This document shows positions 640 through 17,380 of a DNA stretch of 48,369 nucleotides, piece by piece. Numbering within the stretch: position 1 is the stretch's first letter; each line of letters starts with the position of its first letter. The notes below the pieces were generated by a model that searched no databases, was not told the DNA's origin, and was given only the letters and a program-made list of their open reading frames with translations. The stretch comes from Oscillospiraceae bacterium UBA6370 (GTDB lineage: Bacteria > Bacillota > Clostridia > Oscillospirales > Oscillospiraceae). Where the stretch lies: the NCBI GenBank assembly GCA_002437735.1, contig DJRC01000081.1, positions 1 to 48,369 of the forward strand, in the 5' to 3' direction. The translations under genes and the position numbers were made by a program.

Positions 640-1086
640 ATGGCAAATCAACTTTTCCCGGTATTCGACGTGCCGGAAGTAAGCACCCCGGCCGCGGCCA
701 GCGAGCGGAAATACAAGCCGAGCGTCTACTTCGACTATGACCTGGGCGACTTCCGACGCGACAGCGGCGGCAACATGGTCGAGGCCAGCGGGCATGACGC
801 CTACATCCAATGGTGCCTGAAGACCTGCATGACCGAGCGCTTCACGCGCCTCGCCTACTCCACAGACATCGGCACGGAGCTGATAGACGCCCTCGACCAG
901 GACACCCGCGAGGCCGTCGAGAGCGCCGTCGAGCGCACCATCACCGAAGCGCTCATGGTAAACCCGCGGACCGAATACGTCCGCGCCTTCACTTTCACAT
1001 GGGAAGCCGCCGAGCTTCGCTGCACCTTCATCGTCAAGGGCCGCGAGTGGGAAGAGCGGCAGCTTTCCGTCAACTACACGCAGTAA
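640..1086 (+). CDS. Baseplate wedge protein, XkdS/DUF2634 (gp25-like)
   Basis: Motifs QWCLKTCMTERF..AYSTDIG.E and ERTITEALMVNPR; lies immediately before baseplate J. Confidence 0.85.
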   Translation: MANQLFPVFDVPEVSTPAAASERKYKPSVYFDYDLGDFRRDSGGNMVEASGHDAYIQWCLKTCMTERFTRLAYSTDIGTELIDALDQDTREAVESAVERTITEALMVNPRTEYVRAFTFTWEAAELRCTFIVKGREWEERQLSVNYTQ

Positions 1087-1098
1087 GGAGGGCCACCT

Positions 1099-2229
1099 AT
1101 GGCAGATTTTGTGCTCCCCTCCTGGCTGAACGACCAGGACGCGGAGACCATACAGCAGCGCATGATGAAGGCGCTCCCCGCCGACATCGACAACACCGAG
1201 GGCGGCTTCCCCTACGACTTCACCATGCCGACGGCGCTGGAGAAGGCGGAGCTTTTAGAGTTCTTCTTGCCGGAGACCCTGAAAATCATGTTTCCACAGT
1301 GGGCCTACGGCGAATGGCTGGACCTTCACGCAAAGGGCGTCGGCCTCACCCGGAAGCCCGCGAACCAGGCGTCCGGCTACCTCACTGTGACCGGCATCGC
1401 CGGGACAGTCATCCCGGCCGGCTTCACCTTCGCGGTCCCGGCCATCGACGACAGCCCGGCCATTGAGTACCAGACCCAGGAGGAGGCCGTCATCGGCGAA
1501 GACGGCGAGGTTTCCATCTACGTCGTCGCCGTAGAGGCAGGCACAGGCGGGAACGCGCCGGCCGGAAGCATCGCCATCATGGCGAAGCCCATGACCGGCA
1601 TCACCAGCATCACGAACCCGCAGGCCATGACCGGCGGCACGGCAGAAGAGGACGACGACGGCCTCCGCGCTCGTATCGCCGAAATCGACCACGCGGCCGG
1701 CTCTTCTTTCGTCGGCTGCGATGCGGACTACATCCGCTGGGCGAAGGAAGTGCCCGGCGTCGGAACGGTCCTAATCGACACGCAGTATGAAGTGGACCAC
1801 CCGAACTGGGTCCGCCTCGTCATCCTCGACAGCAACGGCGAACCGGCCAACGAACAGATCCGCAGCGCCGTCTATGACCACATCATGGGGCCGGAGGAGC
1901 GGAGCATCAAGCGCCTGGCGCCCATCGGAGCCATCCTGTTCGTGGAGGCCCCGAACGGCACCACAATCTACTACTACATTTCCGGCCTGAAGCTGGAGCC
2001 GGAGGCGGACGGGGAGACCGTTCTCGAAGCCTTCCGGGAGAACCTACGCACCTACTACGTCACCGCCAAGGAAGAAGGCGTCGTCCGCCATACCCGCGTC
2101 TGCGCCGTCCTCTCCAGGACCGCAGGCGTCGTCGACTTCGGCGGCCTCACCATGAACGGCGACACCGAAAACATCAACATCCTGACTGACGGCTACCCCG
2201 TCACAGGAGAAGTGAAAACGGGGGAATAA
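1099..2229 (+). CDS. Baseplate J / XkdT-like protein
   Basis: Motifs A.GEWLDLHA..VGLTRKPA, GG...EDDDGLRARI and DYIRWAKEVPGVG. Confidence 0.93.
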   Translation: MADFVLPSWLNDQDAETIQQRMMKALPADIDNTEGGFPYDFTMPTALEKAELLEFFLPETLKIMFPQWAYGEWLDLHAKGVGLTRKPANQASGYLTVTGIAGTVIPAGFTFAVPAIDDSPAIEYQTQEEAVIGEDGEVSIYVVAVEAGTGGNAPAGSIAIMAKPMTGITSITNPQAMTGGTAEEDDDGLRARIAEIDHAAGSSFVGCDADYIRWAKEVPGVGTVLIDTQYEVDHPNWVRLVILDSNGEPANEQIRSAVYDHIMGPEERSIKRLAPIGAILFVEAPNGTTIYYYISGLKLEPEADGETVLEAFRENLRTYYVTAKEEGVVRHTRVCAVLSRTAGVVDFGGLTMNGDTENINILTDGYPVTGEVKTGE

Positions 2230-2232
2230 GAA

Positions 2233-3042
2233 ATGGCATTTGACATTGAGCATTTCCCCACAAGCGCAGCGGCCAAGCGGATGCTTGACCGCGTTTCTCC
2301 GATTTACGAACAGTCCTATGTTGGTAAGTGGATTTACCAGGTCATGGGACTGGAAATGGATGAAGCCCGGCTTGCCTTCGAGGAGCTGCGGCTTCAGGCG
2401 TTTCCTGAAACGGCTACATGGGGGTTGAGATATTGGGAAGACCGATACGGACTACCGACGGACGAGGCCCGCGACCTGGAAGAACGACGCGCCGAGCTTT
2501 TGAGCCGACGCGGTGCCAGGGCGCCTATGAACCCCGCCCGTGTGGAAAACATCATCAGCAGCCTGCTCAACCTGCCCGTTTTTGTGACGGAAGACGTGGT
2601 GCCCTACACCTTTGCGGTGGAAATCGCCACGGGAGAGCGCGTGGTGGACTTGCTACGGGCATACGAGCGCCTCCTGGAAATCAAGCCGTCACACCAAGCG
2701 GTGCAGTTGATAACCAGGCACAAAACCATGGACGCGACGGCCAGGCTTGGCGCAGGAATGATGCTCTTCAGCATCACGCCGCTACCCGAACTGCCGGAGG
2801 ACCACAGCTTCATGGCCCAGGCAAGCATCGAGGGCGGCGCCCAAATCACCTCCAGGACCACCCTCCCGGAGATGGCCGAAGCACACCCATTCATCACCAC
2901 AGCGCAAGTGGCGGCAGCGGTCCAGGCCGCAACCTACACGCCGCTCCCGGAGTATGAAGCCCCCAGGCCGCCTCTGCGCGGCACCTGGGAAGTCAACGGA
3001 GCGGGAGCCATCATCACCAGCACCGCACTCCCAGAAATCTAA
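2233..3042 (+). CDS. Baseplate protein XkdU/YmfQ (DUF2313-like) with C-terminal repeats
   Basis: FPETATWGLRYWE..YGL and EIKPSH motifs; follows baseplate J. Confidence 0.85.
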   Translation: MAFDIEHFPTSAAAKRMLDRVSPIYEQSYVGKWIYQVMGLEMDEARLAFEELRLQAFPETATWGLRYWEDRYGLPTDEARDLEERRAELLSRRGARAPMNPARVENIISSLLNLPVFVTEDVVPYTFAVEIATGERVVDLLRAYERLLEIKPSHQAVQLITRHKTMDATARLGAGMMLFSITPLPELPEDHSFMAQASIEGGAQITSRTTLPEMAEAHPFITTAQVAAAVQAATYTPLPEYEAPRPPLRGTWEVNGAGAIITSTALPEI

Positions 3043-3063: not shown

Positions 3064-4272
3064 ATGTACGGGTTCACCATCACGAAGCAGGGGCGCAAGC
3101 TCCTTGCTTCCCTTATTGCGGGCCAGCAGCTCGTCATCCTCGGCGTTCAGGTCGGCTCCGGCAAAGTGCCGGAAGGCCAGGACCCCCGCGACCTGACGGC
3201 CCTGATTGCGCCCTTCGCGGAAGCCACCACCACTACACCCGTGCGGGACAACGACAAGGTCTCCTTCATCGTTGAATACCGCAGCGACATGGGCGGCGGC
3301 CTCACGGAGGGACGTTACCTCAACGAGTACGGCGTATTTGCACTTGACCCGGAAGACGGCAAGGTGCTCCTTTACTACGCCAATCTCGGCGACTACCCGG
3401 AATGGGTATTCGCATACAGCGCCACCCAGCCCCCGACCATTCGCCGCTACCCCGTCCAAATCGGCGTGGCGACCGACGCCGAAGTTGTTCTCGACTTCAA
3501 AGCCGGCGCCTTCGTCACCGCGGACGAAGTAACGGCCCTTGTGAACAAGGCTGTGGAGGAGGCGGGCGGGACCAGCGAGGAGAAGGTCAAAAACCTTATC
3601 TCCGAGCACAATTCGGACCCGAACGCCCACAGCGAGGTCCTGGCGCAGGCCGTGCAGACCACATTCGACAAACTCGTCGAGCAGGGCACGGTCATCGACA
3701 AGGAGGAAGTGCAGACGCTCATCGCTCAGGCCATCGCGGCCGGCGGCGGAAGCTACGGCGGCCTCCTCGACCTCACTATTCCCGCTGCCGGATGGACCCC
3801 GGCGGAAGCCCCTACCGAAGAATACGCTTACACCTGCGACGTTGCAGCCGAAGGCGTCACCGCGGACCACTGGCCCATCGGTGCGCCGAAGCTCGGCAGC
3901 TTCACCGCGGGTCAGGAGGCAGGTGTCGTCGGCGGATGCGAAACCATGGACGGTTATGTCCGGTTCTACTCTAAGCGCATCCCGACCGTCGACATCCAGG
4001 CCGCCATCGTCGTCTTCACCCAGGGCAGCACCAGCGGGAACATCGCAACGAAGGACACACCCGGCGTTGTAAAGCCCGGCGATGGCCTCACCGTCGGAGA
4101 GGACGGAACGCTTTCCCTTGACCTCGGAAGCGGCCTCGCCCTCGACGAAACCGGCAAGGTCCAGGTCGACACCGAAACCGTTGTAACCGGCGCCGATATG
4201 GTAAACGAAGAAGAGGTCAAAAAAGACGTCGCGGACATCCTCAACGGGGAAGACGACGACGCAAATACTTAA
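3064..4272 (+). CDS. Tail fibre / tail-collar fibre protein
   Basis: N-terminal ITKQGRKLLA...VGSG...LNEYGVFA.DP..G.VLLYY (baseplate-attachment domain type); EHNSDPNAH and ATKDTPGVVKPGDGLTV.EDGTL fibre motifs. Confidence 0.8.
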   Translation: MYGFTITKQGRKLLASLIAGQQLVILGVQVGSGKVPEGQDPRDLTALIAPFAEATTTTPVRDNDKVSFIVEYRSDMGGGLTEGRYLNEYGVFALDPEDGKVLLYYANLGDYPEWVFAYSATQPPTIRRYPVQIGVATDAEVVLDFKAGAFVTADEVTALVNKAVEEAGGTSEEKVKNLISEHNSDPNAHSEVLAQAVQTTFDKLVEQGTVIDKEEVQTLIAQAIAAGGGSYGGLLDLTIPAAGWTPAEAPTEEYAYTCDVAAEGVTADHWPIGAPKLGSFTAGQEAGVVGGCETMDGYVRFYSKRIPTVDIQAAIVVFTQGSTSGNIATKDTPGVVKPGDGLTVGEDGTLSLDLGSGLALDETGKVQVDTETVVTGADMVNEEEVKKDVADILNGEDDDANT

Positions 4273-4290
4273 TTTTTGGAGGAACACATC

Positions 4291-5166
4291 ATGTCTAAGA
4301 ACATCACCACCAAGACCACCATCCAGAACCTCGCTGCCCAGATTAAGAAGGACTTCGTCAAGAAGACCGCCTTCACCCCCGTTGAGACCGCTGCCAAGAA
4401 CGCCTTCAAGAGCGCGAAGGTCGACGGCAACTCCGTCCAGTTCTTCACCAGCGCCGACAAGTCCGGCACCGCCGCCTTCACCTTCGATTTCCCGAAGGAA
4501 ATCTTCCTGGACCAGACCAAGACTGAGTTCGTCGACGTCTTCGCCTGGAGCGAGGCCACCTATCCCGGCTCCACCAATCCCAACCTGGAAGGCAAGCCCG
4601 TCATGGTCCTGGCCGTTAAGGGCAGCGACGACACCTGCACTTACTCCTTCCTGAACATGGCCTCCCTGGTCGATACCTACAAGGCCAAGGTCCAGGACAA
4701 GGACGCCTCCACCACCATCGAGATCGCTGGCTACGAGGTTGAGGTCAAGGTCAACATCTCCAAGGCGGACAACAACGCCCTGGAGCTGAAGGACGACGGC
4801 CTGTATGTCCCCAAGGCTGCGGTCGTCGACATCAGCGGCAAGGCCGACAAGGTCGCCAAGGCTACTGCCGGTAACCTCGCCGGCCTGGACGAGAACGGCA
4901 ACCTGACCGATTCCGGCAAGAAGGCCTCCGACTTCGTGACCGCCGAGGCCGGTAAGCGCCTGATGACCGACGAGGAGGGCACCAAGCTGGCCGGTATCGC
5001 CGAGGGCGCCACCAGGGTCGAGGCGTCTGCCACCAACGGCAACATCAAGGTCAACGGCGAGGAGAAGACCGTCTACACCCTGCCTGAGACTGTTCTGCAT
5101 GACAGCGACATCAGCGACTACACCGCCGAGGAGATCGCTGCCCTGCTGGCCGACGACGAGGGCTAA
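4291..5166 (+). CDS. Phage fibre-like structural protein
   Basis: SD GGAGG before ATG 4291; fibre-type motifs KADKV..ATAGNLAGLDENGNLTDSG and KLAGIAEGA; strongly biased codons. Confidence 0.65.
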   Translation: MSKNITTKTTIQNLAAQIKKDFVKKTAFTPVETAAKNAFKSAKVDGNSVQFFTSADKSGTAAFTFDFPKEIFLDQTKTEFVDVFAWSEATYPGSTNPNLEGKPVMVLAVKGSDDTCTYSFLNMASLVDTYKAKVQDKDASTTIEIAGYEVEVKVNISKADNNALELKDDGLYVPKAAVVDISGKADKVAKATAGNLAGLDENGNLTDSGKKASDFVTAEAGKRLMTDEEGTKLAGIAEGATRVEASATNGNIKVNGEEKTVYTLPETVLHDSDISDYTAEEIAALLADDEG

Positions 5167-5196
5167 TCCATAACCAGCCGAAGGAGGTAAAACCCC

Positions 5197-5664
5197 ATGG
5201 CAAGGAAGAAATTCAAACTTCCGCTTGATGTGGGGTTTCCCGCCCTGTGCAGTCATATCAAGGAAATCAGAAAGACCGCGGAGGATTCGTCCTCCGCGGT
5301 CTCTGCGCTGGCCCAGGCCACAAGCGACGCTCTCAACGAGGTCGACGGCATCCTCCAGGAGAAGCTCGACCTCGTTTCTCCCGTCAGTTTCACCATCCCG
5401 ACGACGGGATGGAAGACCGACAGCGCCGTTTCCGGCTACACCAAGTATTACGACCTCGCCGTCGACGGCCTCCTGGCCTCCGACATCGTGGCCGTTGACG
5501 TAGCCCCGGCCAGCACGGACATCGCCAGAGCGGCAAACTTCACCAACACCGAAACCCTCGCCGGGGTCCTGCGGCTCCGCGCTAAGAGCGTACCCACCGC
5601 AGCAATCACGGCGCAGTATCACATCACCAACACCGCAAAATACGCGGTGGAAGAGGAGGCATAA
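5197..5664 (+). CDS. Phage tail-associated hypothetical protein (possible fibre adaptor)
   Basis: SD AAGGAGG; N-terminal helical segment followed by a beta domain resembling part of the 3064-4272 protein. Confidence 0.65.
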   Translation: MARKKFKLPLDVGFPALCSHIKEIRKTAEDSSSAVSALAQATSDALNEVDGILQEKLDLVSPVSFTIPTTGWKTDSAVSGYTKYYDLAVDGLLASDIVAVDVAPASTDIARAANFTNTETLAGVLRLRAKSVPTAAITAQYHITNTAKYAVEEEA

Positions 5665-5666
5665 AA

Positions 5667-7496
5667 ATGGCATTTGGCCCCTTCAACGTGGGAGGCGGCT
5701 CCGCCCAGGGCGGCGGCTCTGCCTCCAGCGTTCTCTACGACAACAGCAAAACCCACATCGCGGCCAGTAACGTCCAGGACGCCCTCGACACCGTGCTGGA
5801 CGCGACCCTCCCGACCCTCGTCATCACGGCCCCGGCCGGAAGCGCCCTCGTCATCACCAACGGAAGCACCGTCATCAACGGCACCAGCGGCACCGACGGG
5901 ACCTTCACCACCAAGCTCCCGAACACCGGCACCTGGACCATCCAGGCCAGCAAGGACGGAGAGAGCACGGAGGGCACGGTCAATGCCGCGGAGGTTGGCG
6001 GCAACTACGCAATCACCCTGGCGTACTTCGCCGCCACCATCAACGTCACGGCCGTCGCCGGAGCGGTCGTCAAGGCCGTTTGCGGCTCCGATACCTTCTC
6101 CGCAACTGCGGCCAGCAACGGCAAGGCCGCCATCACCGTGAAGAAGGCCGGGACTTACACCATTTCCGGCACCTACGACGGAGCAGGCTCCAATACCGCC
6201 TCCGTCAACGTCACCACCAACGGCGCCAGCTACACCGCCACGGTGAAATTCATCACCCTGACCGTGACCGCGCCCGCAGGCAGCACCATCACCGCAAAGA
6301 ACGGCAGCACGACCAAGACCGGCACCGGCGGCACCGTCACCTTCTATCTCCCGAACACCGGCACCTGGACCGTCCAGGCGACGAAGAGCGGAGAAACGGC
6401 CAGCGACACCGTCAGCGTCACCGCCTACCAGGCATACAGCGTCGAGCTGGCCTACGTGAAGATTTACGGCGTTACGTGGGATAAGAGCAGCAAAACGACC
6501 CTGACCCGCACCGACGACGCTGCGCTCTTCACCGACCCCGTCCCCAGCGTTGGCGGCGCCGCAGGCTCCTCGCCTTTCGACAAATGCCTGCCCTGGTCCG
6601 GCATGGTGAAGGAGAGCCGCACCGGCGGCGTCATGGTGAAAATTCCGAAGTTCTGGTATAAGTGGACCGACGCCAACGGCACCCTGACGCTCCAGATTGC
6701 CGACAAGGCCGTTTCCGGCTTCCACGTCAGCCCGGCCCACGCGGACCGCGGCGACGGCAAGGGCGAGCGCGACTACGTCTACATCGGCCGCTATAAGTGC
6801 GCCGCCAGCACCTACAAGAGCGAGACCGGGAAGAAGCCGCAGACCAACCAGACCCGCGCCTCTTTCCGCACCAGCATCCACAACCTCGGCTCGAACATCT
6901 GGCAGCAGGACTTTGCGATGTTCTGGACGACCCGTATGCTCTACCTCGTCGAATACGCCAACTGGGACGGCCAGGCGGCCATCGGCTTCAACTGCGGCAA
7001 CAACAGCAGCACCGAGAATATGGGCACCACGGACAGCATGACGTATCACACCGGCACGAAGCTCTCCAGCAAGACGACCTACGGCACCGGCGTCCAGTAC
7101 CGCTGGATTGAGGACCCGTGGGGCAACGCCCTGGAGTGGTGCGACGGCATCTACTTCTCCGGCTCCAACGTCTACTGCATCAACAATCCCGCGAACTTCA
7201 GCGACAGCAGCGGAGGCACGAAGACCGGGACCAGACCGACCTCCGGCGGCTACATTTCCGCCTGGGGCATCCCGACGGTCTCCGGCTTTGAATACGCCCT
7301 CTATCCCTCTGCGGTCGCAGGCAGCGAGACCACCTACATCGCCGATTGCTGCAGCTACGACAGTTCCGGCGTGGTCCTCTGCGTGGGCGGCAACTGCAAC
7401 CAGTACCGCTACCACGGCCCGTTCTACCTGGACGGCAGCTACTCGGCCTCGTACTCGAACAGCGTCATCGGCTCCCGACTCCAAGAACTCCCCTGA
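5667..7496 (+). CDS. DGR target protein: receptor-binding tail protein with Ig-like repeats and C-terminal C-type-lectin-fold (FGE-like) variable domain
   Basis: YDN...NVQDALD fibre motif; three beta-sandwich repeats; IEDPWGNALEWCDG and C-terminal ...VGG...IGSRL pattern typical of DGR targets; the 3' end carries VR. Confidence 0.92.
   Translation: MAFGPFNVGGGSAQGGGSASSVLYDNSKTHIAASNVQDALDTVLDATLPTLVITAPAGSALVITNGSTVINGTSGTDGTFTTKLPNTGTWTIQASKDGESTEGTVNAAEVGGNYAITLAYFAATINVTAVAGAVVKAVCGSDTFSATAASNGKAAITVKKAGTYTISGTYDGAGSNTASVNVTTNGASYTATVKFITLTVTAPAGSTITAKNGSTTKTGTGGTVTFYLPNTGTWTVQATKSGETASDTVSVTAYQAYSVELAYVKIYGVTWDKSSKTTLTRTDDAALFTDPVPSVGGAAGSSPFDKCLPWSGMVKESRTGGVMVKIPKFWYKWTDANGTLTLQIADKAVSGFHVSPAHADRGDGKGERDYVYIGRYKCAASTYKSETGKKPQTNQTRASFRTSIHNLGSNIWQQDFAMFWTTRMLYLVEYANWDGQAAIGFNCGNNSSTENMGTTDSMTYHTGTKLSSKTTYGTGVQYRWIEDPWGNALEWCDGIYFSGSNVYCINNPANFSDSSGGTKTGTRPTSGGYISAWGIPTVSGFEYALYPSAVAGSETTYIADCCSYDSSGVVLCVGGNCNQYRYHGPFYLDGSYSASYSNSVIGSRLQELP
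5916..6379 (+). repeat. Intragenic 32-nt direct repeat (5916-5947 / 6348-6379) encoding LPNTGTWT(I/V)QA
   Basis: ctcccgaacaccggcacctggacc(a/g)tccaggc occurs twice with one mismatch. Confidence 0.85.
7340..7482 (+). repeat. DGR variable repeat (VR) including IMH
   Basis: Ungapped alignment to 7890-8032 (offset 550); all 15 mismatches lie opposite TR adenines. Confidence 0.97.
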
Positions 7497-7503
7497 TGGG
7501 GGA

Positions 7504-7523
7504 CCGGGGGCCGCAGCCCCCGG
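7504..7523 (+). promoter_or_regulatory. DGR post-VR hairpin/cruciform (8-bp GC stem, 4-nt loop)
   Basis: ccgggggc-cgca-gcccccgg just after the target stop codon; no U-tract; matches the geometry of the Bordetella phage BPP-1 retrohoming hairpin. Confidence 0.85.
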
Positions 7524-7565
7524 AGCTTCCGAAAAGCGTGAACCCACCGTAAGGAGAACCAGCCC

Positions 7566-7808
7566 ATGAGACAGAACAAAAAGCACACCCCCGCCGGGAG
7601 GCAGTACGCCAACACCGGCATGGGCGGGACCCCCTACGCAGTCCGGGAGACCACCACCCAAAACGGAGAGCGGCGCTGGGCCATCCAGCGCCGCTCGACC
7701 GCTACCGGGGAATGGATAAGCACCGGCCCCGCGGAATGGGAGACTCCCGCCGCAGCACAGGCCACCCTCGACCGCATCGCGCAGGCGAACGGGTGGCCCG
7801 CGATATAG
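7566..7808 (+). CDS. Small hypothetical protein (80 aa) in the DGR accessory-gene position
   Basis: SD AAGGAG at 7551-7556; lies between VR and TR; Trp-rich, predicted beta strands plus one C-terminal helix. Confidence 0.7.
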   Translation: MRQNKKHTPAGRQYANTGMGGTPYAVRETTTQNGERRWAIQRRSTATGEWISTGPAEWETPAAAQATLDRIAQANGWPAI

Positions 7809-7889
7809 TAAGACAAACCGGCACCCATTAGGGCGCCTCGGGATTGTCTGCGCCTTGGAGCCTCGGCCGTTTCCTGGCTGTTGCGCGTC

Positions 7890-8032
7890 CGCCGATTACT
7901 GCAACTACAACAGTTCCGGCGTGGTCCTCTACGTGGGCGGCAACTACAACCAGAACCGCAACCACGGCCCGTTCTACCTGAACGGCAACTACACGGCCTC
8001 GAACACGAACAGCAACATCGGCTCCCGACACC
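7890..8032 (+). ncRNA. DGR template repeat (TR) with IMH*
   Basis: Near-copy of VR; in the VR frame it contains 11 AAC and 6 TAC codons; 38 adenines in 7891-8030. Confidence 0.96.
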
Positions 8033-8170
8033 TTGTTAGCAAACCCCAGCACATCTATGGCGCAGGCTTTCGCGCACCGCTTGGTGAAGATATTGCCATC
8101 AGGACTTCGTTTAGTACGACCGGAAGGCACCTGGAAAGACGGAGAGGCAAACAAGGAAAGGTGACGACTT

Positions 8171-9271
8171 ATCAAAAGAATAGGGCACGTCATGGAACAA
8201 ATCGTCGCGGACGACAACGTCCGCCTCGCCATTTTGAAGGTCAACAGCGCGCATCACCAGCACGGCGTCTGCGGCTGGGTACTCCGTACCCTGGACGAGC
8301 GCGTCGAAGAGCTGAAGCGTATCGCGCAGGACCCGAAATGGCAGGCGTCGCCGCCCCGGACATTCGCGTTCTATGACAAAAGCGCCGGCAAATGGCGGGA
8401 CGAAGTATGCGAGCCGCCCATCTGGCCGGACCAATATATCCACCACATGATTGTCCAGGCCCTGGAACCCATATTGATGAAGGGCATGGACCACTGGTGC
8501 TGCGGGAGCATCCCCGGACGCGGCATCAGCCACGGAATGAAGGGGATAAAGCGGTGGCTGAGGGAAGACCCCAAGGGGACCCGCTACGCCGCAGAACTCG
8601 ATATAAAATCGTTCTATCGCAGCATCAACCCACGGTATGTCATACGGTGGCTGGCCCGGAAGATAAAGGACCGCGCAGCCCTGCGTCTAATATGGGCCAT
8701 CATCAAAAACGGCATCAAAATCGGGTACTATATCAGCCAATGGATGGCGAACGCCATGCTTCAACCCTTGGACCACCTTATCCGGGAGAAGCTGGGCGTC
8801 CAACACTTCCTGCGCTACATCGACAACCTGACCCTCTTCGCCAGCAGCAAGAGGAAGCTCCACAAGGCGATAAAGGCCATCAGCAAATGGCTGACCTCCG
8901 TCGGCCTCCGCCTGAAAGAGAACTGGCAGGTTTACCGGGTCAGTGCCCGCATGGTGTCTGCCCTGGGCTACCGCTACAACCACCAGAAGACCCTCCTCCG
9001 CAAGCGGAACCTTCTCCGCCTGAAGCGCCAGCTCGCCCGCGCCTATAAGAAGATAGACGCCGGCCGAAAGCTGGCCGTTTCTATGGCGGCCGGTCTGCTT
9101 TCGAGGCTCGGCCAACTGAAGCATTGCGACAGCCGCGACCTCCGCCGGGCCATCGTTCGGCCTGGACTAATCAAAATCCTGAAAGACGTTGTGCGAGAGC
9201 ACAGCCGCAAAAGAAAGGAGCAAAGCCAAAAATGGAACAGAACACCCGCACCCAGTACAGCTTCGGCGTAA
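8171..9271 (+). CDS. DGR reverse transcriptase (catalytic motif YIDN; probable ATC start at 8171, first ATG at 8192)
   Basis: RT motifs: DQYIHH, CCGSIPGRG, ELDIKSFYRSI, GIKIGYYISQWMAN (DGR-type IG..SQ), FLRYIDNL, GLRLK, LGYRY; immediately downstream of TR. Confidence 0.93.
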   Translation: MKRIGHVMEQIVADDNVRLAILKVNSAHHQHGVCGWVLRTLDERVEELKRIAQDPKWQASPPRTFAFYDKSAGKWRDEVCEPPIWPDQYIHHMIVQALEPILMKGMDHWCCGSIPGRGISHGMKGIKRWLREDPKGTRYAAELDIKSFYRSINPRYVIRWLARKIKDRAALRLIWAIIKNGIKIGYYISQWMANAMLQPLDHLIREKLGVQHFLRYIDNLTLFASSKRKLHKAIKAISKWLTSVGLRLKENWQVYRVSARMVSALGYRYNHQKTLLRKRNLLRLKRQLARAYKKIDAGRKLAVSMAAGLLSRLGQLKHCDSRDLRRAIVRPGLIKILKDVVREHSRKRKEQSQKWNRTPAPSTASA

Positions 9272-9615
9272 TGAAGCTCATGGGCGAAGAGCAGCAGGTC
9301 CTCCGCGTCAAATCTAAGGACCCCATCACCCTCACGCCAGGCCGCTACCATACGGTCACCGAGGAGTTCCCCGACATGACCGTCACCCACAACTTCAAGG
9401 TCGACTACATCGTCGCCGAGGACAGCGACGCCGACGGCTACGTCTATAAGTGGTTCGCCCTCAAAGAGCACCACACCGCCACGGACCGCAGCCCGAAGGC
9501 CATCCAGCTCTCCGAGCAGAACGCCGCCAACCTGGACTACGTCTGCATGATGGCCGGTATCGACCTGCCGACTGAAGACGAACCGCAGCAGAAGGAGGAC
9601 AGCACCGATGAATGA
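9232..9615 (+). CDS. Phage tail-associated hypothetical protein (XkdW-like position)
   Basis: SD GAAAGGAG at 9213-9220, ATG 9232; C-terminal NAANLDYVCMMAGIDL; overlaps the RT end by 40 nt. Confidence 0.7.
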   Translation: MEQNTRTQYSFGVMKLMGEEQQVLRVKSKDPITLTPGRYHTVTEEFPDMTVTHNFKVDYIVAEDSDADGYVYKWFALKEHHTATDRSPKAIQLSEQNAANLDYVCMMAGIDLPTEDEPQQKEDSTDE

Positions 9616-9769
9616 GCACAGCCCGAAGTTTGAGCGCGTAAAGCGCTACTACGACACCGGCCTCTGGAACGCGGCGATGGTACGCAACGCCACGAAGAAC
9701 CCGAAGGCCTCTCCGTGGATTACCGAGGCCGAGGCCGAGGAAATTCTGTCCGGCGGCGCCAATGAGTAA
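9608..9769 (+). CDS. XkdX family protein (53 aa; not in ORF track)
   Basis: Translates as MNEHSPKFERVKRYYDTGLWNAAMVRNA...WITEAEAEEIL, matching the XkdX pattern K.YY..GLW...V......IT..E..EI. Confidence 0.85.
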   Translation: MNEHSPKFERVKRYYDTGLWNAAMVRNATKNPKASPWITEAEAEEILSGGANE

Positions 9770-9941
9770 CCTTCAGATGATAGAAGCGCTCTGCACCCTC
9801 TGCGAGGAGCAGAACCGCGTCCTGAAGGCCATGGCCCGGCGCCTCGGCGAGCTGGGCGACACCGCCCTCACCGACGAGATCGCTGCGGCCGACGAGCGCT
9901 ACCGCCAAATCATCGGGTCCAACGAATTCCTGGACCCGTAA
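9762..9941 (+). CDS. Small hypothetical phage protein (59 aa; not in ORF track)
   Basis: MSNLQMIEALCTLCEEQNRVLKAMARRLGELGD...; overlaps the XkdX stop; codon usage matches neighbours. Confidence 0.65.
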   Translation: MSNLQMIEALCTLCEEQNRVLKAMARRLGELGDTALTDEIAAADERYRQIIGSNEFLDP

Positions 9942-9945
9942 CCGA

Positions 9946-9976
9946 AGCCGCCCTCTCCGCGAGGGCGGCTATTTCT
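9946..9976 (+). terminator. Stem-loop ending the tail operon
   Basis: agccgccctc-tccgc-gagggcggct followed by a weak T tract (atttct). Confidence 0.6.
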
Positions 9977-9996
9977 ATGCAAAGGAGGGAGCCAAC

Positions 9997-10395
9997 ACGG
10001 GAAGAAAATACACCCCGAAGCACCTGGCGGACACCTACGACCAGGCAAAGCGCAAACTCGAACTGCGCTATGAGCGGAAGGAGCTGAAGCGCAAAGAGCG
10101 CATGAAAAGCTCCTCGCTCCTCTGGCTGTGGGAATTCAGCAAGAAGGCGGTCCGCATCTGCATGACCATCTACGTCCTCGTCATCGCCTACGCCATGACG
10201 GCCATGTGGACCCGGAACGATTTCACCTACCTGGGGACGCTCATCGAGCAGACCAGCGACATCCTGAAGGTCTGCGTCTTCGGCTACCTCATCAAGGCCG
10301 GCGCCGAGAACGTCGTCCGCATCCGCACCTCGCCGCAGGCCCCGGAAGAGGACCCGCAGCCGCAGGAGGACGACGGCCCCGTCGTGCCGCAGTAA
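9997..10395 (+). CDS. Lysis-module membrane protein (holin-like); probable ACG start at 9997, first ATG at 10102
   Basis: Two hydrophobic segments with EFSKK...KAGAEN; frame is open back to an ACG placed just after SD AAGGAGG. Confidence 0.65.
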   Translation, partial: TGRKYTPKHLADTYDQAKRKLELRYERKELKRKERMKSSSLLWLWEFSKKAVRICMTIYVLVIAYAMTAMWTRNDFTYLGTLIEQTSDILKVCVFGYLIKAGAENVVRIRTSPQAPEEDPQPQEDDGPVVPQ

Positions 10396-10416
10396 CAAAG
10401 AAGGAGGAACCACAAA

Positions 10417-11340
10417 ATGACCGAAAACCAACTCCGCGCCAAAGTAGTCACAGCGGCAAAAGGCTGGTACGGGTGCAAAGAGGCCGACGGGAGCCACAAG
10501 CCCATCATCGACCTCTACAACACCCAGAAACCGCTCCCCCGCGGCTACAAGATGAAATACACCGACGCCTGGTGCTCGACCTTCGCCAGCGCCGTCGCCA
10601 TTAAGGCCGGCATGACCGACATCATCCCGACCGAGTGCGGCTGCGAGGCCCATATCAAGCGCTTCAAGGCCATGGGAGCCTGGCAGGAGGACGACACCTA
10701 TGTCCCGAAGCCCGGCGACTATATCTTCTATGACTGGCAGGACAACGGCGTCGGCGACTGCACCGGCGCAGCGGACCATGTCGGCATCGTCGTCGAAGTG
10801 AACGGGACCACCATCACCGTCATCGAAGGCAACATGAACGACGCCGTCGGCTACCGCCGCATCGCCGTCAACGGCCGCTATATCCGCGGCTACGGTGTCC
10901 CCAACTACGCCAAGAAGGCCGCGGGCGGCAAGCAGACCGACGAAGGAACGGGCAACACCAAGGACACGACCCCGTCCGGCACCTACGCCGTGGGCGATAC
11001 TGTCCAATTCCTCGGTGGCCCGCACTACACCAACGCCGTCGCCGCCAAAGCCGCCGGGAAACCGAGCGCAGGCCCGGCCCGCATCACGGCCATCAAGAAG
11101 GGCACCGCGCACCCCTATCACGTTGTCCACACCACCAGCGCCTCCGGCGTCTACGGCTGGGTCGATGCCGCGAGCATCGCCGCCGCGGCCGGCGAACAGA
11201 CCTACACCGTCGTTTCCGGCGACACCCTTTCGGCCATCGCCCGGAAGTACGGCACCACCGTCAAGAAGCTCGCCGCCTACAACGGCATTTCCAACCCCAA
11301 CATCATCCGGGTCGGCCAGACCCTCCGCATCCCTAAGTAA
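10417..11340 (+). CDS. Endolysin: CHAP + SH3-like + LysM
   Basis: CHAP motifs [27 protein letters not shown]-terminal [19 protein letters not shown]...[14 protein letters not shown]. Confidence 0.93.
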
Positions 11341-11357
11341 GGAGAAAGGAGGACGCC

Positions 11358-11651
11358 ATGAGTGAAAGCATCGAAATTCAGTTGACGCGCATCGACGAGC
11401 GCAGCAAGCGCAACGAGGGGCGCATCAAGCTCCTGGAAGAGAACCAGGAGACCCTTCACAAGCTGGTGACGAGCGTCGAGCTTATCGCCAAGAGCCAAGA
11501 GCGCATCGAGGGGACCGTCGGAGAGCTGACCGGGAAGGTCGAAAACCTGGAGCAGGCCGACGGAAAGAAGTGGCGGGCCGTCGTAGAGAAGGTCGTCACC
11601 GTCATCGTTGCCGGCATCATCGGCTATATGCTCGCCCACGTCGGGTTTTAA
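11358..11651 (+). CDS. Coiled-coil protein with C-terminal TM helix (XhlA-like lysis-associated)
   Basis: SD AGGAGG; heptad region followed by KWRAVVEKVVTVIVAGIIGYML. Confidence 0.75.
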   Translation: MSESIEIQLTRIDERSKRNEGRIKLLEENQETLHKLVTSVELIAKSQERIEGTVGELTGKVENLEQADGKKWRAVVEKVVTVIVAGIIGYMLAHVGF

Positions 11652-11670
11652 GAAAAAGGAGTGATACCCT

Positions 11671-12189
11671 ATGGACATTTCCACCATCATCGGGACCTTC
11701 GCCAACGCGCTTATCGCCGCGGCCGCGACCGCTACGGCCGCGCTTGTCGCCTACGGCATCCGTCGCCTGGCGGAGTACCTGAAGAACCGCACCACCAGTG
11801 CAGACGCCAAGCGCTTCATCGACGAGGCGAGCGACGCCATCAGCGCCGCCGTTGCGGCCACCTCGCAGACCTATGTCGACGCCCTGAAGGCTGCCGGAAA
11901 CTTCACCAAGGAGAACCAGGAAAAGGCCGCAGAGGCCGCCCTGGAGACCGCCAAGAGCCTTCTCGCAAAGGACGCCGCCGACTTCATCGCCGGCGCATAC
12001 GGGAGCCTGGACGCCTACCTGAAGCCCAAAATCGAAGCCGAGGTCCGCAGTCAGAAGGCCCTCCAGCCTGCCGCCAAGACGACCAAGGCCACGGAGGAGA
12101 CCACCACCGTCGCCGCTACTACCGCCGCCGCTACTGCGGCCGCCGTGGCCCAGCGGGCCATCATGCAGCAGCCTGAAGACACCAAGTAA
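11671..12189 (+). CDS. Putative holin (LL-H-like)
   Basis: Single N-terminal TM helix; AV.ATSQTYVDALK...KIEAEV pattern; lysis cassette position. Confidence 0.75.
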   Translation: MDISTIIGTFANALIAAAATATAALVAYGIRRLAEYLKNRTTSADAKRFIDEASDAISAAVAATSQTYVDALKAAGNFTKENQEKAAEAALETAKSLLAKDAADFIAGAYGSLDAYLKPKIEAEVRSQKALQPAAKTTKATEETTTVAATTAAATAAAVAQRAIMQQPEDTK

Positions 12190-12207
12190 AATCTCGCCTT
12201 TCTGCAC

Positions 12208-12250
12208 AAAGACCGCCGAGTGAGTTTGTATATCATTCGGCGGTCTTTCT
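12208..12250 (+). terminator. Terminator after lysis cassette
   Basis: aaagaccgccga ... tcggcggtcttt inverted repeat. Confidence 0.75.
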
Positions 12251-12252
12251 CC

Positions 12253-12316
12253 TTGCTTATTAACCAACGCCGGTATATTATTGCGTCACAACGAACGAAT
12301 AACCAACGGCAGTTAA
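12253..12316 (+). promoter_or_regulatory. SigmaA-type promoter with repeated operator-like motif
   Basis: TTGCTT(12253)-17 nt-TATTAT(12276); TAACCAACG at 12261 and 12300. Confidence 0.6.
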
Positions 12317-12330
12317 TGGAGGACACCGAA

Positions 12331-12540
12331 ATGAAAAAGCTGACCCTTAACACCATGCGCGAAGGCTACGGCATCGACCAGATCCGCGAGACCATGACGG
12401 TCGGCGAGCTGATGAATTTCCTTGCACAGTACGACGAAGACACGCCAGTCTTCCTGAGCTTCGACGGCGGCTACACCTACGGCGGCATCACCGAGCAGCG
12501 CTTCGAGGAAGACTACGGCACCGAAGAGGAGGAGAACTGA
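12331..12540 (+). CDS. Hypothetical phage protein
   Basis: SD GGAGG; TMTVGELMNFLAQYDEDTPV...GYTYG. Confidence 0.75.
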   Translation: MKKLTLNTMREGYGIDQIRETMTVGELMNFLAQYDEDTPVFLSFDGGYTYGGITEQRFEEDYGTEEEEN

Positions 12541-12542
12541 AC

Positions 12543-13046
12543 ATGACGACCAAAGAGCAGGAGCGCAACGCGCTCGCCAAGATTATGAAAATCGTCGCCG
12601 ACCTCGGCGAGGGCAGCTACATCGCAACAGCCTTTGAAGGCTGCTTCGAGATTGCCCGCGAGAACATCGACAACGACTGGGCCTGCTCCATGAAGCAGAA
12701 AGCCGAGAGCGCAGAGGAGAAGCGCATCGAGGCCGAACTCGGCTACAACCGCCTCGTTGACAAGCTCGCGGAGAGCGAGAAGGCCGTCGCGGAACTCCGG
12801 GAGCGTACCCTTTCCGCGGACGACATCGCTGACCTCTCCAAGCTCCTCACCGAAAAGGTCCTCTACCTCGGCAACGAGGTCAGCAGCGACGCCGAGCGCA
12901 TCGTCGAAGCCGCGGACCGGCCGGACAGCGCGGAATTTCGGAGCGCCGTCAAGGACCACCGCACGGTCAAGGCGGGAATGACCCGATACACCGCCCTCCT
13001 CGCCAGAGTGAACGCCATCAGAAAGAAAGACCAGACGCCGGAATAA
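12543..13046 (+). CDS. Hypothetical coiled-coil phage protein
   Basis: SD GGAG; packed against the previous gene; phage-like codons. Confidence 0.75.
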   Translation: MTTKEQERNALAKIMKIVADLGEGSYIATAFEGCFEIARENIDNDWACSMKQKAESAEEKRIEAELGYNRLVDKLAESEKAVAELRERTLSADDIADLSKLLTEKVLYLGNEVSSDAERIVEAADRPDSAEFRSAVKDHRTVKAGMTRYTALLARVNAIRKKDQTPE

Positions 13047-13089
13047 TAAGCAGCCCGCCCCGGAGGAACGAAGGCAGAAAGGACCAGAT

Positions 13090-13284
13090 ATGACCTATAC
13101 TGAAATTCTTGAATGGGCCAGAAGAGGCATCAAGGCTGAACAGGCCCGCATCCGAGAGATGCAGGAGAAAGCCCTGGAGGGCCAGGCCCTCCCCCTCGCC
13201 CGGCAGGCGCAGGACGCCATCGACAAGCTGGACGTCCACCTCGCAACCCTCGACGAAATCCAGGAACTGCACGACAGAAAGTGA
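13090..13284 (+). CDS. Hypothetical phage protein
   Basis: SD AAGGA; short helical protein. Confidence 0.7.
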   Translation: MTYTEILEWARRGIKAEQARIREMQEKALEGQALPLARQAQDAIDKLDVHLATLDEIQELHDRK

Positions 13285-13295
13285 AGGAGAAGCAC

Positions 13296-13826
13296 ATGAA
13301 AATCATCACCGCTGAGACCAAGGTCGTCTACACCATCGAATACACCTTCGAGGACTACAAGGCCGCCCGCGAGACCTACCTGAAGGACCCCGCCCTGAAG
13401 CGGCGCTATCCCCGCGCCTTCTGCGAGTTTCATAGAGACCCGGAGGACGAGACCGGCGAACTTGCCTTCGTTTCCCTCTCCGTCATCACGTCGCGCCGCA
13501 GCGCCCCCAACGATACCTTCTCTGCGATGGCCCGTATCTGGGGTTATGACGGCTGGCAGAACTGCGGCTTTTACGACGAGAAGACCGGCAAGCGCCAGAT
13601 GACGGTCTACCACAGGACCGAGGCGCAGGAGCAGAAGAGCGCCGTCGAACAGCTTCACGACCGCTATGGCTGGCCCCTGAAAATTCACGCCAGAGGGTGC
13701 GACGCCTACCTCGTCGGCGCCCAACCCCTAAACGAAGGCGACCCAGAGCCGATATACCGCTTCCCCGGAGGCGACAGCCTCGTCGATAAGGCCGAGCTAA
13801 GAGTGGCCGGGAGGAACGAGGAATGA
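13296..13826 (+). CDS. Hypothetical phage protein
   Basis: SD AAGGAG before ATG 13296 (alternative GTG at 13281); ATGA-coupled to the next gene. Confidence 0.7.
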   Translation: MKIITAETKVVYTIEYTFEDYKAARETYLKDPALKRRYPRAFCEFHRDPEDETGELAFVSLSVITSRRSAPNDTFSAMARIWGYDGWQNCGFYDEKTGKRQMTVYHRTEAQEQKSAVEQLHDRYGWPLKIHARGCDAYLVGAQPLNEGDPEPIYRFPGGDSLVDKAELRVAGRNEE

Positions 13827-14101
13827 CGCAGCTCCACATGAGGCAGTTTAACGGGATGACCTTCGGCATGGAGGCACAGAACCCGGCGGCCCTTAGGACC
13901 CTGAAAAAGAAGGTTTACTATGCCGAGATAATCCCGAATGGCCGATGCCTCCCCGTAAAGCGCCAGTGCGTCGCGGCCGAGTACGTCGCCGCGGTCATGG
14001 GCCGGGCGGCCTGGCTCGTCGCCGAAAGCCATTTGATGGAAACCGTAAGTTGGGACGACAGCGGCGACATCTACATCATCTACAAGGAGGACCTGAAATG
14101 A
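13823..14101 (+). CDS. Hypothetical phage protein
   Basis: ATGA overlaps on both sides. Confidence 0.65.
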   Translation: MTQLHMRQFNGMTFGMEAQNPAALRTLKKKVYYAEIIPNGRCLPVKRQCVAAEYVAAVMGRAAWLVAESHLMETVSWDDSGDIYIIYKEDLK

Positions 14102-14625
14102 AGCGCCTGAAGAACGAGAACATCCGCCTGAAGGACGGCACGGCCGCCACCCTCTCGACCGCGCAACTCCCGGACGGAAGCTATGAGACCATGCTCTACT
14201 GCGGCCCGGCCATGACCGAGCTGGCCGTCGTCCAGAGCGACACCGAGGCGGCGGCCCTCGCCGCCCACAAAGACATCAAGGCCAACTACCACGTCGAGGC
14301 CCCGGCCGGGAAGTATAAGGACCTGGCAGACTGCCTGCGAGCGGCCAAAGAATACGCCCTCGCGCACAGAGGGAGCGACGACGGCGGCACCTGCAACTTC
14401 GACGCGCCGACCATCGCCCTCCCTGGCTGGGAAAAGGCGAAGGTCGAAGCCGCGGCCGCGGAGGCCGGAACCGGCTGCTTCGTCTGGAACGCCTTCGGCG
14501 GCAGGCTCTTCGTTTTCCCCATCGGCGGAGGCCAGGGCAACGCCCGGACCAAGGCCGCCGAGATTGCCCGCGACTTCCTCCAGGCCGCAGGCTTCAACGC
14601 CGGGATGTACTACCAGATGGACTGA
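14098..14625 (+). CDS. Hypothetical phage protein (DGGTCNFD motif)
   Basis: SD AAGGAGG, ATG 14098; in frame with ORF 13945-14625. Confidence 0.7.
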   Translation: MKRLKNENIRLKDGTAATLSTAQLPDGSYETMLYCGPAMTELAVVQSDTEAAALAAHKDIKANYHVEAPAGKYKDLADCLRAAKEYALAHRGSDDGGTCNFDAPTIALPGWEKAKVEAAAAEAGTGCFVWNAFGGRLFVFPIGGGQGNARTKAAEIARDFLQAAGFNAGMYYQMD

Positions 14626-14641
14626 CAAGGAAGGGGCTGAA

Positions 14642-14854
14642 ATGATAGACTACCAAGCCATCATCGCGCAGCTCCAGGAGGAGCGCCGCGCTGTCTGGGC
14701 CTACCGCTACGGAGGCATGGTCCCGGCCTACTACTGCACTGCCCTGCGGGCCGCCATAGCGGCCCTGGAGGAGTGCGAAGCCTGCCGAAGCGCCGCAGAC
14801 CAGGCGGCAGAAGAACGGACGAAGGGAGCAGCGGAAAGTGAAGTTATGCGATAG
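14642..14854 (+). CDS. Hypothetical phage protein
   Basis: SD-like AAGGGG, ATG 14642. Confidence 0.55.
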   Translation: MIDYQAIIAQLQEERRAVWAYRYGGMVPAYYCTALRAAIAALEECEACRSAADQAAEERTKGAAESEVMR

Positions 14855-15083
14855 GTGCCGGGTGCCCGGCTGCCTGCTGAACTACGGCGGGAAAGCCTGC
14901 CAAAACGCCAGGAAGCAGGAATGCCCGGACGTAATTTTTACCCGCGCAGACAAAATCAGAGAGATGGAGGACGAGGAGCTGGCAGACTTCCTCGCGTACA
15001 CCTGGGCCATCAAAGCCAAAGCCTGGCACACAGACGGCGGCGAGGTCCTGGCATGGCTCAAAGAACCGGAGGAGGAGCTATGA
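14838..15083 (+). CDS. Small Cys-rich phage protein
   Basis: CDRC..PGC...; TRADKIREMEDEELADFL...WLKEP pattern. Confidence 0.7.
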   Translation: MKLCDRCRVPGCLLNYGGKACQNARKQECPDVIFTRADKIREMEDEELADFLAYTWAIKAKAWHTDGGEVLAWLKEPEEEL

Positions 15084-15256
15084 AGAGCACAGGAACCCCG
15101 TGCCGGAACTGCCTGCACAGCAAGCGACAGACCTGGGAGCACCCATGTTGCGACTGCATGAGCGACGAGGACATCGCCCTCGCCCACATGAACCCAAACC
15201 ACCCGGTCGACTTCGTCCACTACGAACCGAAGGAGGACCCCTATGACAGAACGTGA
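15080..15256 (+). CDS. Small Cys-rich phage protein
   Basis: SD GGAGGAG, ATGA overlap; CRNC...PCCDC. Confidence 0.65.
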   Translation: MKSTGTPCRNCLHSKRQTWEHPCCDCMSDEDIALAHMNPNHPVDFVHYEPKEDPYDRT

Positions 15257-15785
15257 ACGCCTGATAGAGAAGCTGATGAAGACCAAGGCTCTCGCCGAGC
15301 GCGGCGTCGGAGGAGAGCGCGAGAACGCCGAGCGCATCCTCACGGCCATGCTCCAGAAGTACAGTATCAGCCTCGATGACCTGGAGAGCGAAGAGGAAAC
15401 GACCCACTGGCTCACCTTCAAGACGGACCTGGAGCGCCGCCTCCTCCATCAGCTCGCCTACAAATACTGCGGCAGCGGCCACGCTTACGGCTGCATCGGC
15501 AAGTACACCAACCGGCCCAGGAAGAAGGTCGGCATCGACTGCACCAACGCCATCTACATCGAAATCGAGGCCGACTTCGATATGTACCGCCGGGCACTGG
15601 AAGAAGACCTCGAAATCTTCTACTCCGCCTTTATAGCGAAGAACAACATATACCCGCCCCCGGAGCTGGCCGGAGACCTGGATGACGACGGCGACGTGGA
15701 CTATGAGCGCCAGATGAAGGTGGCGGCCATGGCCAAGGGCATCGAGCGCAGGACGCGCAACAAAGCCCTCCCATCAGGGGAATAA
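15243..15785 (+). CDS. DUF2786-like domain protein
   Basis: LIEKLMKTKALAERGVGGERENA..L..MLQKYSI N-terminal pattern. Confidence 0.75.
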   Translation: MTERERLIEKLMKTKALAERGVGGERENAERILTAMLQKYSISLDDLESEEETTHWLTFKTDLERRLLHQLAYKYCGSGHAYGCIGKYTNRPRKKVGIDCTNAIYIEIEADFDMYRRALEEDLEIFYSAFIAKNNIYPPPELAGDLDDDGDVDYERQMKVAAMAKGIERRTRNKALPSGE

Positions 15786-15790
15786 AAGCG

Positions 15791-15910
15791 AAGCACCGGT
15801 CAAGCACTGTACTTGCACCAGACAAGCACCGTACTCGCACAGTACAAGCCCAGCCCATTACCCATTACTATTAACCCATTACCCATTACTGGAACCCGTA
15901 GTTATCCACA
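15791..15910 (+). repeat. Origin-like element: five 11-bp tandem repeats, four CCCATTA heptamers, DnaA box
   Basis: aagcaccggtc/aagcactgtac/ttgcaccagac/aagcaccgtac/tcgcacagtac (15791-15845); CCCATTACCCATTACT at 15854 and 15875; TTATCCACA at 15902-15910. Confidence 0.75.
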
Positions 15911-15932
15911 GCGCGGGAGGAAGGAGCCGAAA

Positions 15933-17340: not shown

Positions 17341-17380
17341 GCCTATATCCGTGTGATGATTTTATGATAATCGTATATAA

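Follow-up and report, generated by a model that had tools for sequence, protein, structure and literature searches.

Can a diversity-generating retroelement (DGR) go on rewriting its target gene when the catalytic box of its reverse transcriptase (RT) reads YIDN, with asparagine in the place of the second aspartate of YxDD? This question is raised by a prophage cassette at positions 5667-9271 of contig DJRC01000081.1 from Oscillospiraceae bacterium UBA6370 (GenBank assembly GCA_002437735.1), whose 48,369 nucleotides (nt) were analysed as one stretch, here called the window. The cassette consists, in this order, of a gene for a lectin-fold target protein with the variable repeat (VR), a GC hairpin, the template repeat (TR), an RNA of the Rfam family RT-18 and the RT gene. 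Our answer, to which we assign a probability of about 0.9, is that this is a working DGR independent of the accessory protein Avd, in which an RT with Asn in its catalytic box reverse-transcribes the TR/RT-18 RNA, errs specifically at adenines and so alters the tip of a lectin-fold tail-module protein. The source genome, a high-GC gut Bacillota, is available as an assembly of 1.43 Mb in 98 contigs that is 85% complete; it was searched together with 17 related loci, of which IMG/VR contributed nine, and GTDB genomes and GenBank phages four each.

Adenine-specific transfer from TR to VR

The VR and the TR (coordinates of all features in Table 1) align over 143 nt without a gap at an offset of 550 nt, and their flanks are unrelated on both sides. 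All 15 mismatches between them lie at positions where the TR has adenine (8 A>G and 7 A>T), for which, with a TR containing 26.6% adenine, the chance probability is about 2e-9. These 15 changes are spread over 14 codons, and none of them leaves the encoded residue unaltered. Adenines occupy codon position 1 or 2 in 37 of 38 cases, and enumeration shows that adenine substitution can give rise to about 9e21 proteins and never creates a stop codon. The TR and the VR are the sole two matches to the repeat in the genome, which holds no further copy. A first-pass annotation of the same DNA had already described this arrangement, and its coordinates, its gap-free alignment, its 15 adenine-borne mismatch positions with their effect on the protein, the stop-free TR, the hairpin behind the VR and the adjacent RT gene were all reproduced here; the 38 adenines that it counted are likewise present, while the length of 140 nt that it gave for the TR has to be corrected to 143 nt.

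The element is a genuine DGR, because this adenine-only TR/VR pair is combined with an RT that carries the DGR-type motif 4 IGYYISQ and with a VR confined to the final 50 codons of a lectin-fold target.

At its 3' end the VR shares a GC-rich segment with the TR, which is conserved in all 10 other loci of the clade that were folded. Folding of the DNA just 3' of the VR gives a 5-bp hairpin that includes the stop codon of the target gene, followed by a second hairpin with an 8-bp GC stem and a 4-nt loop. The latter is kept in 10 of the 10 other loci folded, with compensatory stem changes as judged by eye. A separate observation concerns metagenome runs, four of which were compared: contig pieces of 33-36 nt from three of them (X1, X2 and X6) match the double hairpin (7488-7523) alone, with quite different flanks and in opposite orientation. 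The post-VR hairpin module seems to be common to other, unrelated cassettes.

The target protein

The VR spans codons 558-606 of the target. Beta-sandwich repeats make up the N-terminal half of the protein, and its C-terminal 330 residues (nt 6504-7493) correspond to a C-type-lectin-fold variable domain. No Pfam family was found above threshold for the protein, CarboxypepD_reg-like matches in the N-terminal half remained below threshold, and a sequence profile of the C-terminal domain gave no match in the PDB. An AlphaFold2 (AF2) model of this domain, computed from a 33-row alignment, reached a pLDDT of 79.6 and a pTM of 0.87. With this model, Foldseek returned TaqVP (5vf4) as the best match (E 9e-8, probability 1.00), followed by TvpA, Mtd and formylglycine-generating enzymes (FGE). 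Judged by the predicted structure, the target is a C-type-lectin-fold DGR variable protein that is closer to TaqVP than to Mtd. For its last 330 residues, 6218 homologues were retrieved at E<=1e-5, in which this part is attached to many different N-terminal domains. The family is without a Pfam model, and its fusion partners include Big_3, LRR, collagen and tail-fibre N-terminal domains. A diverged direct DNA repeat (5852-5962 and 6284-6394, 111 nt, 74% identical), which fits tandem beta-sandwich domains, is further present in the N-terminal half of the gene. The target gene is the last large gene of the tail-fibre module, and from gene position and fold its product may be a receptor-binding protein.

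Divergence among closely related phages

The first-pass annotation had reserved the question of current activity for deep sequencing reads. This proved too narrow, since near-identical phages already show a divergence that is particular to the VR and to its adenine sites. The IMG/VR contig L005 is 98.3% identical to window positions 4609-12030 (123 differences in 7422 nt). In the 143-nt VR, however, the two differ at 15 positions (10.5%, against 1.5% elsewhere, i.e. a seven-fold higher divergence), all 15 of them at TR-adenine sites, and the TR itself shows 0 differences. We further considered the 90%-identity cluster of the target, which has 47 members, of which 15 are listed. Among these 15, the VR codons that contain a TR adenine vary in 24 of 27 cases, compared to 0 of the 22 other VR codons, and 44 of 560 codons vary outside the VR. 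The VR differs from that of the window in 13 of the 14 full-length members among those listed.

Among the related loci, 12 have an RT with asparagine at the same place as here (DN box), and 10 of these, namely L001, L005-L010 and L013-L015, contain an adenine-biased TR/VR pair. No TR/VR pair was seen in L011 and L012, the latter of which begins close to the RT. Pooled over the 10 loci and the window, 132 mismatches lie on adenine and 9 on other bases.

Receptor-binding tips of tail fibres commonly recombine and are under diversifying selection, and one may thus ask whether the VR variation stems from point mutation combined with diversifying selection, or from recombination of tail-fibre alleles, rather than from retrohoming. 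To this explanation we give practically no credence. Every one of the 24 variable VR codons is a TR-adenine codon, the two sets of 15 differences (window against TR, window against L005) fall without exception on TR-adenine sites, the TR has stayed identical between the window phage and L005, and the chance probability given above applies to the mismatch pattern of the window alone. Based on these sequence comparisons, we judge the DGR to be active now or to have been active very recently.

The spectrum of the changes was also recorded. Among the 132 adenine changes of the DN-type loci, including the window, 84 lead to G, 45 to T and 3 to C, and in two phages with a YMDD box C accounts for 4 of 22 adenine changes. 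For bRT, the RT of phage BPP-1, published in vitro data give dG a share of about 12 points of 52 in misincorporation, i.e. about a fifth. The scarcity of A-to-C changes could be due to a mutational bias or to selection against His, Pro, Thr and Arg.

An RT with asparagine in the catalytic box

The RT gene begins 159 nt behind the end of the TR on the same strand, and the best solved relative of its product is bRT of BPP-1 (PDB 8ub7, 8.4e-16). Motif A reads E135-L-D137 (nt 8594-8602), motif 4 reads IGYYISQ (residues 177-183, nt 8720-8740), which agrees with the DGR signature [I/L/V]GxxxSQ, and motif 5 reads YIDN (residues 209-212, nt 8816-8827). Where YxDD would be expected, the RT has YIDN, and HMMER aligns its RYIDNL to RYMDDI of bRT. 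The box thus departs from the description of the DGR family; membership in the family still stands, as the element shows the family's output.

A Y[M/I/V]DN box is present in the window RT and in 119 of its 120 nearest homologues (45-100% identity; the best 120 of 795 at E<=1e-10). Among the 150 best 50%-identity representatives the box is DN in 33, DD in 113, DS in 1 and partial in 3. Among deposited phages, the closest record (42% identity) shares DN, the RTs of Butyrivibrio phage Arawn and Faecalibacterium phage FP_Epona (34% identity) have YMDD, and the box of Lactobacillus phage LBR48 reads NIDD. On a tree of 127 full-length representatives (FastTree) the state changes between DD and DN 7-8 times, by which DN as one clean clade is ruled out. 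The Asn state is clade-wide and not a private lesion.

DN and DD rows are told apart best by residue 135, which precedes the motif-A Asp by two positions. This residue is Lys in 91 and Glu in 1 of the 113 DD rows, compared to Glu in 23 and Lys in 0 of the 29 DN rows that have a residue there; within the close set, Glu is found in 116 of 120 DN rows. A large clade of DGR RTs might work without the second Asp of YxDD, with Asn at this place, Lys replaced by Glu at position 135 and the active site re-wired in an enzyme independent of Avd, a proposal to which we give slightly less than even odds. Such a re-wired site may also be the cause of the near-absent A-to-C writing.

We found no published account of an Asn-variant DGR RT; supplementary survey alignments may show DN without comment. 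Likewise, a literature search for YxDN, YMDN, YIDN or YVDN together with 'reverse transcriptase' returned nothing on prokaryotic RTs. The main text of Wu et al. 2018 (PMC5758913) does not contain the terms 'YxDD', 'catalytic' or 'aspartate'.

Two further observations concern the RTs of related loci. The tyrosine of the box varies as well: L004 (LBR48, RT at 822-1886) and the representatives P0268, P0272, P0261 and P0267 show NIDD/NMDD, QMDN and HMDN boxes. Moreover, the RT of L013 (4001-5098) contains one in-frame TAG, and the reading frame of the L016 RT (4001-4979) is, as fetched, full of stops. These stops may represent stop-codon recoding, frameshifts or decay.

A structured RNA between TR and RT

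The spacer between TR and RT matches RT-18 over the entire model (positions 1-84 of 84), and a scan of 7300-8300 against Rfam at E<=1 returned RT-18 alone and no RT-10. RT-18 is present in 13 of the 17 related loci (11 of the 12 with a DN-box RT, LBR48 and L016), where it sits between TR and RT. Its two internal helices covary, with 8 of 10 pairs changing on both sides. An additional long-range helix of 6 bp starts from the last TR nucleotide and closes with the 3' tail of RT-18. In the alignment of 10 loci, 95% of the cells of this helix are paired and one of its pairs covaries through three pair types; over the RNA as a whole 97.5% of cells pair, compared to 35-55% with the partners slid.

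The long-range helix would place the 3' part of the spacer beside the end of the TR and may determine the priming site. The spacer of BPP-1 brings its 3' part beside the TR end for priming, and we infer that RT-18 is its counterpart. According to the accessible part of Weinberg et al. 2017 (PMC5737381), the motifs RT-1 to RT-19 lie beside RT genes and some of them were guessed to belong to DGRs; RT-10 is the only motif assigned there to a DGR, namely that of BPP-1. Our literature search found no mention of 'RT-18'.

Avd and candidate helper proteins

Searches with PF05635 and PF22296 detected no Avd, either in the source genome or in 5 contigs of related phages, of which 4 are at least 92% complete. 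The absence of Avd is a known DGR variant. Those parts of Wu et al. 2018 (PMC5758913) that are accessible list 75 of 372 under the accessory-less 'Architecture A', describe a 'Lineage 3' without avd and infer an Avd-independent mechanism for accessory-less DGRs.

Alternatively, a small neighbouring protein could stand in for Avd, either the 127-aa (amino acid) product of the open reading frame (ORF) that overlaps the RT stop or that of the 80-aa basic ORF located between VR and TR. We consider this unlikely for both. An ORF at or just 3' of the RT stop occurs in all 15 related loci listed, those with DD- and NIDD-box RTs among them, and alignment established homology to the 127-aa ORF for 7 of these 15. 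This protein is, however, acidic and not basic, and it precedes XkdX, so that a PBSX-like tail module may simply continue with this gene. The atlas places it in unnamed viral clusters, with the nearest named families (YomQ_N, DUF2977 and XkdX) scoring below 0.85. The 127-aa ORF may encode a tail-module protein or a DGR helper. A tblastn search with the post-RT ORF against phages matched a single record, and a search of longer proteins revealed no fusion of it with an RT, which is weak evidence. The post-RT ORFs of L010-L012, L014 and L015 carry a C-terminal extension (277-281 aa).

The 80-aa ORF is preceded by a strong ribosome-binding site and occupies the position of avd in BPP-1. Nevertheless, it is absent from sister phages (RT 77-79% identical, VR-TR gap of 177-185 nt) and therefore cannot be a core part of the system. 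It was found here and in L005 only, between which it shows 4 differences, 3 of them synonymous; the VR-TR gap measures 407 nt here compared to 100-185 nt in 9 other loci of the clade. The protein has no Pfam or PHROG match and its atlas scores stay below 0.9. AF2 predicts three strands and one helix (pLDDT 68.7), which is not a helical bundle, and Foldseek matched the model to nothing at E<=0.001; rows resembling Pur-alpha, PC4 and Sm proteins, seen at E 0.3-0.8, have no evidential value.

Proposed mechanism and competence of the RT

We propose the following mechanism. One transcript would bear both the TR and the RT-18 structured spacer. The RT would make a complementary DNA (cDNA) of this transcript, misincorporating opposite template adenines, and this putative cDNA intermediate would take the place of the last 143 nt of the target gene. 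Homing would be guided by the GC-rich 3' end common to VR and TR together with the GC hairpin 3' of the VR. As an outcome, up to 27 codons of the probable receptor-binding surface would be rewritten.

From the population data we conclude that the Asn-bearing RT is catalytically competent, because the elements continue to diversify with no other RT at hand. This RT represents the sole RVT_1 match in the source genome, and each of the 5 related phage contigs mentioned above likewise holds one RVT_1 match.

The competing explanation is that the YIDN RT is dead, the VR differences being either fossils of past activity or the work of another RT in trans, which could be encoded in the unassembled part of the genome. 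Textbooks hold both aspartates of YxDD, and so also the second, to be indispensable for an RT, which favours this explanation. In the same direction, the accessible part of Schillinger et al. 2012 reports both aspartates as 100% conserved in 155 DGR RTs. We nonetheless consider a dead RT very unlikely. Decay would scatter changes, whereas the Asn is kept among the nearest homologues down to 45% identity. The RT gene is under purifying selection, because all of its 6 nt differences to L005 are synonymous, leaving 0 differences at the protein level. A source in trans would have to be reconciled with the single RT of the assembly and of each related phage contig. Moreover, the seven-fold higher, TR-adenine-only divergence of the VR between 98.3%-identical phages, and the VRs unlike that of the window in nearly all full-length cluster members listed, are at odds with fossil differences.

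Besides the strict conservation of the second Asp elsewhere, further points weigh against a working Avd-independent DGR as proposed here. The activity of the Asn enzyme is deduced from population data, and that of the element as a whole from sequences rather than from cDNA, RNA or raw reads. At the read level, the 13 runs listed were all stored as assembled contigs, and 4 of them were compared; this is a weak test, as the VR/TR repeat alone breaks assemblies. Within these limits, a single X1 contig covered the entire stretch and showed 89 differences. The contig pieces listed for X2 end within VR and TR, and X4 and X6 are without depth over 7361-7481, which in both instances could be caused by the VR/TR repeat alone. 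Among the differences listed, which extend to 7354, two fall in the VR (7348 and 7354), and at each of them X1 and X2 carry the TR base, A. Regarding the active site, the link between Glu135 and Asn212 is to be taken as an association and not as proven co-evolution, because the independent-pairs test had just 4 pairs on supported branches (sign test p>=0.25). No protein was identified as a replacement for Avd. Finally, host-range switching by variation of the target, as well as its receptor role, is suggested by gene position and fold. Weighing these points against the population data, we still favour a working DGR driven by the Asn-bearing RT.

Gene neighbourhood and prophage setting

The DGR closes the tail-fibre module of a prophage with a contractile tail. 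That the phage is contractile-tailed, as stated in the first-pass annotation, is borne out upstream of the target by PF10934 (gp25-like sheath initiator), Baseplate_J (PF04865) and a Mu Gp48-like protein (Table 1). Two sheath genes lie on separate contigs of the same assembly and are not tied to this prophage. The start of the contig falls within the prophage, and genes of cellular type appear from about 15.8 kb on. The right end of the prophage lies between the holin gene (stop at 12189) and the cellular genes (12200-24200 interval). The nearest named relatives of the RT belong to Oscillospiraceae and Bacillota genomes assembled from metagenomes, and megablast against deposited phages gave no match to the cassette. 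A scan of 5000-10200 returned 0 promoters, and terminators did not exceed the count in shuffled sequence.

Table 1. Features of the prophage part of the window and of the adjoining cellular-type region, with the matches on which the assignments are based.
Feature	Position	Strand	Match or remark
Sheath initiator	640-1086	+	PF10934 1.1e-25 (contractile injection); PHROG baseplate wedge families across 640-3042
Baseplate_J	1099-2229	+	PF04865 2.3e-48
Mu Gp48-like	2233-3042	+	PF10076 1.5e-27
Tail fibre	3064-4272	+	matches of the 3064-5664 module: phrog_27381 and phrog_7037 (tail fibre), phrog_31688, phrog_23587
Two small conserved phage ORFs upstream of the target	4276-5166, 5197-5664	+	PHROG matches
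DGR target gene, 609 aa	5667-7496	+	phrog_5302 'tail protein' 5.6e-51
VR	7340-7482	+	within the target gene; ungapped match to TR
Two post-VR hairpins	7489-7503 and 7504-7523	+	DNA fold of the 75 nt 3' of VR
80-aa basic ORF	7566-7808	+	position of avd in BPP-1; this lineage only
TR	7890-8032	+	38 A in 143 nt
Long-range helix, 5' strand	8032-8037	+	predicted to pair with 8150-8155; RNAalifold on 10 loci
Rfam RT-18 RNA (RF03021), TR-RT spacer	8075-8158	+	76 bits (gathering score 41.3)
DGR RT, 359 aa	8192-9271	+	RVT_1 2.2e-17; phrog_1423
127-aa ORF, 40-nt overlap with the RT stop	9232-9615	+	unnamed viral clusters only
XkdX-like gene	9608-9769	+	PF09693 6.2e-07
Endolysin (lysis cassette)	10417-11340	+	PHROG match
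XhlA/'hemolysin'-like (lysis cassette)	11358-11651	+	PHROG match
Holin (lysis cassette)	11671-12189	+	PHROG match
ADP-ribosylglycohydrolase (cellular-looking)	15813-16928
MnmA-like tRNA methyltransferase (cellular-looking)	23112-24179

Significance and comparison with known systems

DGRs acting on phage tail genes are well known; new here are the active-site variant of the RT with its Glu partner and the assignment of RT-18. The Asn is conserved over hundreds of sequences, and the Asn RT is the sole RT in phages with ever-changing VRs. If biochemistry confirms its competence, a supposed universal of RT catalysis would be relaxed, and the coupled pair 135/212, if real, could tune fidelity or metal use. 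A compact Avd-free RT with its RT-18 RNA could also serve in tools for targeted mutagenesis, for which bRT and Avd are used at present, and RT-18, so far an orphan Rfam motif, would gain a concrete job.

The first-pass annotation had classified the element as BPP-1-type, which is true of the mutational signature and does not extend to the architecture. Like the BPP-1 cassette (mtd-avd-TR-brt; 8ub7 series), it shows an adenine-only flow from TR to VR, a C-terminal VR in a tail protein with a lectin fold, a GC hairpin with a 4-nt loop 3' of the VR, a structured TR-RT spacer RNA and a motif 4 of the [I/L/V]GxxxSQ type. Unlike BPP-1, it has no Avd, its spacer belongs to RT-18 instead of RT-10 and the target fold is nearer to TaqVP than to Mtd; moreover, bRT carries YMDD and Lys two before the motif-A Asp, compared to YIDN and Glu here. 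Architecture B (avd-TR-RT) does not describe the locus, where neither Avd nor an RT-10 spacer was found. The element also resembles the Avd-less DGRs described by Wu et al. (PMC5758913), with which it shares the TR-RT core, the target upstream and the lack of an accessory gene.

For the target, the nearest known structure is TaqVP of Thermus aquaticus (5vf4), a DGR variable protein with a lectin fold that superimposes on the C-terminal 330 residues at TM 0.51-0.55, at a sequence identity of 12-13%. TaqVP is a bacterial protein and not a phage tail component. As for the catalytic box, RNA polymerases of mononegaviruses have GDN in motif C, with Asn at the second acidic position, which shows that an acidic residue is not universally required there. 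These are RNA-dependent RNA polymerases and not RTs, and the parallel is an analogy only, with no evolutionary link. The spacer matches RT-18 (RF03021) as known in full length; what the present locus adds is its place between TR and RT and the helix to the TR end.

Among deposited phages, FP_Epona (MG711462) is alike in gene order, with baseplate J, tail protein, fibre, 'BPP-1-like Mtd', TR, RT, small ORF, XkdX, holin and endolysin. Both FP_Epona and Arawn have adenine-only TR/VR pairs, as found here. They differ from the window in their only distantly related YMDD-box RTs and in the spacer, which is Rfam RT-4 in FP_Epona and gives no Rfam match in Arawn, compared to RT-18 in the window.

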